From Promethearchaeota archaeon (lineage in GTDB: Archaea > Asgardarchaeota > Lokiarchaeia > Sigyniarchaeales > SOKP01), in assembly GCA_048940445.1 (NCBI GenBank), contig JBHLON010000005.1, positions 59,125-123,124 on the forward strand: DNA of 64,000 nt, given 5' to 3'. Below the pieces are notes generated by a model. That model had not been told where the DNA came from and did not search any database. It saw only the letters and a program-made list of their open reading frames with translations. Shown one piece after another: positions 218 through 51,207 of the stretch. Numbering within the stretch: the first letter of the stretch is position 1; each line of letters starts with the position of its first letter. The position numbers were made by a program, and so were the translations under genes.

Positions 218-396
218 GGGCCATTAGCTCAGACTGGTTAACAAGGTTTTAAAAGCTTGGTCAAAAAGCGCAGGTCTTATAAATGACCGACGGACATACA
301 TCAAATTAAATTGTCTGTTATTAGTAAAAACCTGAGTCTCATTGTGTTTCCATCAATGAGTGAAGGAAATCCGGGGTTCAAATCCCCGATGGCCCA
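218..396 (+). tRNA. tRNA-Ile(UAU) with three introns (~241-265 D-loop, ~282-328 anticodon loop, ~336-368 variable loop)
   Basis: Acceptor GGGCCAT/ATGGCCC+A; D arm GCTCAGACTGGTTA..AAGC; anticodon stem CAGGT/ACCTG with CT-TAT-A; T arm CGGGG-TTCAAAT-CCCCG; each insert forms a hairpin; removing them gives a standard Ile-type cloverleaf. Confidence 0.85.
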
Positions 397-407
397 TTTT
401 TAAAATA

Positions 408-51134: not shown

Positions 51135-51207
51135 TAGCCCGGCACGGATTCGAACCGTGGTCACGGGGTTCAAGGCCCCATATGCTTGGCCGCTACACCA
51201 CCGGGCT
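51135..51207 (-). tRNA. tRNA-Gln(UUG), intronless, with C at position 33
   Basis: AGCCCGG/CCGGGCT+A acceptor (A1-U72); TAGCGGCCAAG D loop; TGGGG-CC-TTG-AA-CCCCG; CACGG-TTCGAAT-CCGTG. Confidence 0.92.

Follow-up and report, generated by a model that had tools for sequence, protein, structure and literature searches.

A three-intron gene for a probable AUA-reading tRNA-Ile(UAU) in Loki-type archaea without detectable TiaS

Anatomy and splicing of the gene

The window, by which is meant the whole stretch of DNA that was analysed, comprises 64,000 nucleotides from a Promethearchaeota archaeon (assembly GCA_048940445.1, contig JBHLON010000005.1). Close to its start, on the forward strand, lies a 179-bp tRNA gene made up of four exons and three introns and ending with A73 at position 396 (Table 1). 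The unspliced gene was missed by both plain ARAGORN and Rfam (RF00005) in a search of the window, and the only tRNA that these recognised there is an intron-less tRNA-Gln at positions 51135-51207. With the three introns taken out, the remaining 75-mer is called tRNA-Ile(tat) by ARAGORN and forms a normal cloverleaf.

The spliced molecule has a 7-bp acceptor stem (GGGCCAT paired with ATGGCCC), a D arm, a 5-bp anticodon stem, a 7-nt anticodon loop with U33 and a purine at position 37, a T arm with a TTCRA loop, and a discriminator. A preliminary description of the locus had pointed to a CT-TAT-A loop in an isoleucine-type body with a GGGCC acceptor, A73 and a short variable loop. The loop, body, acceptor and discriminator are real, as seen from the ARAGORN call and from the 53 orthologues described below. 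The variable loop is also short, at 5 nt (AGATC), but only once the third intron is out. The run of five Ts that follows A73 is likely to act as an archaeal terminator. In the D stem, the pair 13-22 is a C-A mismatch in the window copy. The D arm (225-232 and 266-269 in the window) occurs as two alleles among the orthologues: TAGCTCAG, in 25 genes, which has the same C13-A22 mismatch, and TTGCTTAG, in 28 genes, which has a T13-A22 pair. Nucleotides 9 and 13 covary.

Table 1. Coordinates of the tRNA-Ile(UAU) gene in the window and the basis on which each feature was placed.
Feature	Positions	Strand	Basis or remark
Complete tRNA-Ile(UAU) gene	218-396	+	Spliced product called tRNA-Ile(tat)
Exon 1: acceptor 5' strand, nucleotides 8-9, D-stem 5' strand GCTC, D-loop AGACTGGTTA	218-240	+	Genes without intron 1 (L012, L045) run straight into AAGCGC
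Intron 1, 25 nt, at the 3' edge of the D-loop, position ~21/22	241-265	+	Sequence reading; 4 of the 53 orthologues lack it
Exon 2: D-stem 3' strand AAGC, G26, anticodon-stem 5' strand CAGGT (271-275), CTTATAA (276-282, positions 32-38)	266-282	+	Loop conserved
Anticodon TAT (UAU), positions 34-36	278-280	+	Sequence and ARAGORN call on the spliced 75-mer
Intron 2, 47 nt, beside the anticodon, formally at 38/39	283-329	+	Sequence reading; present in 53 of 53 orthologues
Hairpin within intron 2: 289-296 paired with 312-319, 8 bp including G-U pairs; loop begins TACA (297-300)	289-319	+	32 distinct covarying stems
Exon 3: anticodon-stem 3' strand ACCTG (330-334) and variable-loop nucleotides 44-45 (AG)	330-336	+	Comparison with orthologues
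Intron 3, 32 nt, in the variable loop at 45/46	337-368	+	39 of the 53 orthologues lack it
Exon 4: variable-loop nucleotides 46-48 (ATC), T arm CGGGG-TTCAAAT-CCCCG, acceptor 3' strand, A73	369-396	+	Sequence reading and comparison with orthologues
Run of five Ts directly 3' of A73; no encoded CCA	397-401	+	Sequence reading

The limits of the outer two introns follow from relatives that lack them. Intron 3 is placed by the 39 orthologues in which CCTGAG runs without a break into ATC or AGC and then the T stem, and intron 1 by the four in which GGTTA or GGTCA is joined straight to AAGCGC, since these show the joined sequence. Intron 2 is present in every orthologue, and its limits come from conservation and geometry instead. 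The sequence CTTATAA is identical in all 52 genes of the window's family type, and the base that follows (283) is A, G or T.

A strict bulge-helix-bulge motif consists of two 3-nt bulges around a 4-bp helix, with each cut falling 2 nt past a helix strand. In intron 2, the central helix is formed by TTAT (277-280, nucleotides 33-36) and GTAA (324-327), with C32 unpaired. It is followed by a 3-nt bulge, AA/A (281-283, the slash marking the cut), on one side and by only 2 nt, AA (328-329), on the 3' side, before A330. Cuts placed 2 nt past each strand of this helix fall after 282 and 329, which gives the intron as listed in Table 1. The 3' strand of the helix is GTAA in 39 genes, GTAG in 7, ATAA in 5 and ATAG in 1, and each of these pairs with TTAT. 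The preliminary description had placed this intron at 37/38. By the geometry of the motif it sits formally at 38/39, although the spliced product is the same as from a 37/38 cut because positions 328-330 are all A. The canonical 37/38 register was rejected for the window's genus, in which CTTA (32-35) does not pair with AGTA.

Intron 1 has a central helix of TGGT (235-238) with GTCA (260-263), flanked by the bulges TA/A and AA/A, and an inner helix of CAAG (242-245) with CTTG (256-259). It has no regular outer helix, making this a relaxed motif. The 3' strand of its central helix varies between GTCA, GCCA and ATCA, all of which pair with TGGT. Intron 3 has a 7-bp inner helix (338-344 with 354-360) and a central helix with just 3 of its 4 pairs formed, CCT(G) at 331-334 with (A)AGG at 363-366. 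All three motifs are thus relaxed forms. A closed 4.4-Mb genome from another family of the order (G044) has a strict motif with the intron at 37/38, in which CTTA (32-35) pairs with TAGG between the bulges TA/T and CT/A. Comparison of the sequences suggests that intron 2 has slid by one position between this family, f2 (L045:1501-1620 and G044), and the window's genus.

The number of introns in the tRNA-Ile(UAU) gene ranges from one to three among the relatives. Several genes (L010, L011, L013-L017, L019, L020 and L144) have a further intron of ~30 nt in the D-loop, right after GCTCAG, giving two D-loop introns, and have no intron in the variable loop. The splicing endonuclease of Asgard archaea has been described as an (alpha-beta)2 enzyme of broad specificity with an L1 loop (PMC5829648). 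The genome contains two genes with EndA domains, on contigs C3 and C62, and this number appears to match such an enzyme, which would be able to cut relaxed motifs.

Orthologues, TiaS and the reading of AUA

A DNA search of 60 relatives, together with an exact-pattern scan of public genomes, yielded 53 distinct orthologous genes, which come from related genomes and are not independent samples. CTTATA (nucleotides 32-37) is invariant in all of them, and so therefore is the TAT of the anticodon; nucleotide 38 is A in 52 genes, and A or T overall. The acceptor stem occurs in nine variants, in every one of which all positions form Watson-Crick pairs; double changes are seen at pairs 2-71 to 7-66. 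The T stem has four variants, again all paired, while G1-C72 and A73 do not vary. Since the 53 orthologues keep the loop and all of their acceptor variants are paired, the match is not a matter of chance, and the gene is under purifying selection. The gene is found in two families of the order. One orthologue (L084) has a different yet fully compensated acceptor stem, GCTCCCG/CGGGAGC.

When the spliced tRNA was compared with 19 intron-less tRNAs, the best match, at 56 of 75 positions, was the tRNA-Ile(GAU) from an Asgard genome that has TiaS; the runner-up had 51. The body is therefore isoleucine-like, and charging with isoleucine would be expected from its sequence. A 22-nt motif that runs across exon 2 into the beginning of the intron was matched in 92 public records, almost all of them labelled Promethearchaeota archaeon or Promethearchaeia archaeon, which are the NCBI names for the Loki lineage. 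The Loki-type exon-intron motif is also found, letter for letter, in metagenome-assembled genome (MAG) records labelled Hod-, Hermod-, Thor- or Odinarchaeota and in one labelled as a Nanopelagicaceae bacterium (L084, L087, L098, L106, L125, L129, L150 and L108). These are probably errors of labelling or binning. When families f4-f7 of the class were searched by pattern, along with f8, f17 and f18, which are without TiaS, nothing convincing emerged, with patterns too lineage-specific to speak on absence.

In nearly all archaea, AUA is read by a tRNA-Ile2(CAU) that carries agmatidine, made by TiaS. A single domain model, TiaS_FLD (PF08489), was used to look for this enzyme. It recovered TiaS from all four control archaea and from 156 of the 301 genomes drawn from the phylum at a completeness of at least 80%. 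Genomes labelled Baldr-, Jord- and Freyarchaeota were also seen to bear the enzyme. By the same model, TiaS was not found in the source genome, a MAG that is 93% complete, nor in any of 61 class genomes in one draw (which included the 60 relatives), nor in any of 106 other class genomes (families f1, f2, f4, f5, f6 and f7) in the draw of 301. Since none of the 61 and none of the 106 class genomes has it, against 156 of 301 in the phylum, the loss of TiaS is, as judged from these domain hits, characteristic of the clade and does not reflect a gap in a single MAG. Further families without TiaS are f8 (with genomes of 1.4 Mb), f17, f18, f21 and f25. By contrast, all 19 genomes of f26 have it. This is a Heimdall/Hod-type family that includes a chromosome labelled Candidatus Heimdallarchaeota bin6, whose close relatives bear the label Hodarchaeota. 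A domain search for TilS also found nothing. In one genome labelled Candidatus Baldrarchaeota, tiaS is followed ~150 bp downstream by a CAU tRNA that has a 32-nt intron (L061:2550-2654); from its GGG/CCC anticodon stem, this tRNA looks like an initiator rather than a tRNA-Ile2.

The demand for an AUA reader is high. In 883 long open reading frames, AUA makes up 33.7 per 1000 codons, which places it ninth among all codons and accounts for 33% of isoleucine codons; AUG is rarer, at 19.9 per 1000. The preliminary description had suggested that this genome may decode AUA without TiaS and had proposed a search for tiaS as a check. The search came out in favour of the suggestion, with no tiaS in the source genome or in the 106 other class genomes. 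Because the anticodon is UAU, the body is isoleucine-like and TiaS was not found in the class genomes searched, AUA is most likely read without agmatidine.

The tRNA genes of the source genome were gathered with T-arm anchors, D-arm anchors, G+C islands, anticodon-arm patterns and Rfam, by which about 35 were recognised. ARAGORN itself recovers just 20 tRNAs in the 3.6 Mb, several of them with the wrong anticodon. A second ARAGORN call of tRNA-Ile(tat), at C72:26564-26700, was discarded after inspection by hand: it is a two-intron tRNA-Val(CAC) whose stem is ATACG/CGTGT and whose loop is CTCACAC. In this genome, tRNA genes as a rule have several introns. Many have an intron in the T-loop just past GGTTCAA (contigs C94, C67, C85, C2 and C139), including those for Lys(UUU), Lys(CUU), Asp, His, Thr(CGU), Trp and initiator Met. 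The sole CAU tRNA among the roughly 35 genes is that initiator, on contig C139. No tRNA-Ile2(CAU) was seen among them, in a census too incomplete to prove absence.

Taken together, the sequence evidence makes it very probable that the gene encodes the AUA-reading tRNA-Ile(UAU) of this Loki-type (Promethearchaeota) archaeon. The two-subunit splicing endonuclease would cut the 179-nt precursor at the three bulge-helix-bulge-like sites seen in the gene, and ligation of the exons would then give a 75-nt tRNA with UAU, A37, A38 and A73, a product established by comparison with the relatives that lack individual introns. In the precursor, U33-U36 would be held in the 4-bp helix with the 3' end of the intron, the same kind of pairing as in eukaryotic pre-tRNA-Ile(UAU). 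The mature tRNA would be charged by IleRS, and its U34, whether modified or unmodified, would pair with the A of AUA. The usual archaeal route, by which tRNA-Ile2(CAU) receives agmatidine, would be unavailable because the lineage is without TiaS.

The UAU tRNA might instead be merely supplementary to a tRNA-Ile2(CAU) that is modified by an enzyme unrelated to TiaS or TilS. About ten expected tRNAs, the elongator tRNA-Met and tRNA-Ile(GAU) among them, were not recovered in the incomplete census of ~35 genes, which leaves room for such a second decoder, and recent work on bacteria and organelles has uncovered other modifications of C34 that permit the reading of AUA (PMC11938285). However, no candidate gene or tRNA was seen, and in the documented cases of TiaS or TilS loss, the UAU tRNA is always the sole AUA reader (PMC3919564, PMC3239211, PMC8450103). 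A second decoder is therefore improbable.

The mature anticodon can be read securely as UAU. If splicing took place at or before 35/36, the anticodon would become UAA and the tRNA a leucine acceptor. The window alone could allow this, as it has a run of As before ACCTG, and a junction after nucleotides 33-35 would give the loop CTTAAAA. In close relatives that have GTAGAC or GTAGAT before the 3' stem, however, the same junction would yield UAG, which would mean that one conserved body had changed its identity. Conservation ends exactly past CTTATAA, the central helix sets the cuts after 282 and 329, and the 5-nt variable loop is no leucine-type arm. Contig C108 has a separate and normal tRNA-Leu(UAA), whose variable arm is long. 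The leucine reading can thus be given almost no weight, and the UAU anticodon of the preliminary description, which would have fallen with such a junction, is borne out.

That the gene is a decaying pseudogene or ARAGORN-type noise, as its three inserts, its neglect by standard finders and the C13-A22 mismatch might suggest, is hardly credible given 53 orthologues in two families whose acceptor and T stems show compensatory changes and whose anticodon loop stays constant, the lack of any other AUA reader among the tRNAs found, and the fact that multi-intron tRNA genes are usual in this genome and in some Asgard lineages (preprint 10.64898/2026.10.13.758758).

The intron beside the anticodon

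Intron 2 differs in its constancy from other anticodon-loop introns in the same genus. Whereas it is kept in 53 of 53 genes from two families, the anticodon-loop intron of tRNA-Gly(GCC) is present in three genomes and absent in five. In tRNA-Pro(GGG), the intron lies in the loop in three genomes and upstream of the stem in five, is absent in one, and in one is replaced by an intron in the variable region. The pairing of U33-U36 with the 3' end of intron 2, by GTAA, GTAG, ATAA or ATAG, is found in all 52 genes of the window's type. The hairpin within the intron has a stem of 6-10 bp that covaries freely among the genes. Nevertheless, in nearly all of the 53 genes (L002-L029, L080-L152 and L045; GGACA-TACA at 294-300 in the window), CA stands at the end of its 5' strand and T/G-ACA at the beginning of its loop, and in the other family, G044 has the motif GCATACA.

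The T/G-ACA hairpin motif fits no known box or guide architecture. A box C/D guide within the intron was rejected since it has no C or D boxes. An H/ACA guide was not supported either, as the ACA lies in the apical loop and not 3' of the hairpin, although the motif itself is real. The intron begins with N-TGRCY in all genes (TGACC in the window, 284-288). An inner 3-bp helix of TGA with TCA or TTA was considered as the explanation of the conserved TGRC and was rejected, as the partner is often unpaired in relatives. Pairing of TGACC with GGTCA in intron 1 (259-263) was rejected for want of covariation in relatives. GACC could also pair with GGTC (273-276, nucleotides 29-32), forming an alternative hairpin with the anticodon in an 8-nt loop; this is the structure drawn by a free-energy fold, and only one-sided changes are seen in it.

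One account is that the intron has no role in modification and is simply old and well tolerated, occupying the most stable position. In archaea, no introns are commoner or older than those at or near 37/38. The genome has a single gene of the TruA/Pus1 family, as ordinary archaea do, and no extra Pus1-like gene was found in it. Yeast is viable without the intron of its own tRNA-Ile(UAU) (PMC6582322). Against this stand the retention of the intron in every gene of two families, the coming and going of the Gly(GCC) and Pro(GGG) introns in the same genus, and the conservation of the CA and T/G-ACA motif despite free covariation of the stem. Such a neutral intron has about an even chance of being the right explanation.

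A role in modification is the more tentative of the two explanations, although a conserved and universally kept intron plausibly fits one. The preliminary description had suggested that the intron may be needed for modification of the anticodon, and the support for this is indirect: every gene keeps the intron, its loop motif is conserved, and it pairs with U33-U36. The intron may have been retained beside the anticodon for its control over the fate of U34: the U33-U36 helix and the T/G-ACA hairpin could recruit a pseudouridine synthase to U34 and U36, or they could hold off Elp3, which is present in the genome, until another mark has been placed, and so stop the tRNA from reading AUG. If this were true, archaea would have, probably by convergence, their own version of the eukaryotic anticodon whose pseudouridines at 34 and 36 depend on an intron. 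The stable, motif-bearing intron beside the anticodon is the part of this system that most deserves experiment.

Comparison with known systems

The reading of AUA without misreading of AUG is a classic problem of the genetic code. In haloarchaea, a tRNA-Ile with cnm5U34 binds AUG in addition to AUA (PMC3895270). The class that holds the best-studied Asgard cultures has dropped TiaS, and a UAU tRNA probably serves one of its commonest codons, so that a cultivated and tractable Asgard group could show how an archaeal tRNA-Ile with U34 avoids AUG. There is also a consequence for annotation: an essential tRNA is not seen by the standard finders, and published tRNA sets of such genomes will be without an AUA reader. 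In the searchable literature, no paper was found that ties TiaS or UAU decoding to Asgard archaea. A study of tRNA introns in Asgard archaea described multiple introns, D-arm introns missed by annotators, and repeated gain and loss, with the Freyr-, Jordi- and Atabeyarchaeaceae as its focal families (preprint 10.64898/2026.10.13.758758). Multi-intron genes are common to that study and the present one, but isoleucine and AUA decoding are absent from the preprint, and the source family of the gene described here is not among the focal ones.

A tRNA-Ile(UAU) in the absence of TiaS is already known from a few archaea (Nanoarchaeum, Korarchaeum and ARMAN), to which the Asgard gene is an addition. 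The tRNA-Ile(UAU) gene of Nanoarchaeum equitans bears an intron. Both this species and Candidatus Korarchaeum cryptofilum have a tRNA-Ile(UAU), also called tRNA-Ile3, and neither has TiaS or a tRNA-Ile2(CAU) (PMC3919564, PMC8450103, PMC6000648); the Korarchaeum gene, too, carries an intron (PMC6000648). The Asgard system is alike in its UAU tRNA-Ile without TiaS. However, here the trait spans a whole class instead of a single species, the gene has three introns, and in the window's genus the anticodon intron lies one position further 3' (38/39).

The ARMAN-2, -4 and -5 archaea likewise have a tRNA-Ile(UAU) with no TiaS and no tRNA-Ile2(CAU), and the anticodon intron of ARMAN-2 was cut in vitro by its own endonuclease (PMC3239211). 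They resemble the Asgard case in the UAU anticodon and the absence of TiaS, and the ARMAN-2 precursor also has its intron by the anticodon. ARMAN-2 differs in having one 25-nt intron with a strict motif at 37/38 and an epsilon2 endonuclease, whereas the Asgard gene has three introns with relaxed motifs in a genome with two EndA genes. Among bacteria, Mycoplasma mobile reads AUA with a UAU tRNA-Ile and has no C34-modifying enzyme (PMC3575796), and its U34 is described as unmodified (PMC3895270). Both are prokaryotic UAU readers without a C34 enzyme, although the Mycoplasma mobile gene is bacterial and intron-less.

Parallels in the anatomy of the precursor are also found in eukaryotes. In yeast, the intron of tRNA-Ile(UAU) has two effects: it allows pseudouridines to be made at 34 and 36 by Pus1, and it shields U34 from the Elp-dependent modification (PMC6582322). 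The Asgard gene shares with the eukaryotic one the UAU anticodon and an adjacent intron that pairs with the anticodon in the precursor, and Elp3 is also present in the Asgard genome. It differs in that the Asgard genome is without an extra Pus1-like gene. The preliminary description had called the UAU anticodon eukaryote-style. This holds as an analogy and not as inheritance: common descent of the trait with eukaryotes is unlikely because the Heimdall/Hod-type family, which is closer to eukaryotes, keeps TiaS in 19 of 19 genomes. For the same reason, the UAU trait should not be taken as an ancestral eukaryote-like feature. The red alga Cyanidioschyzon merolae has a three-intron tRNA-Ile(UAU) whose pseudouridylation depends on introns still being present (PMC9602550). 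It is the same isoacceptor, with three interruptions that include one in the D arm and one by the anticodon, but the third intron of the algal gene is in the T arm and that of the Asgard gene in the variable loop. The alga is a eukaryote, and the likeness between the two genes is convergent.
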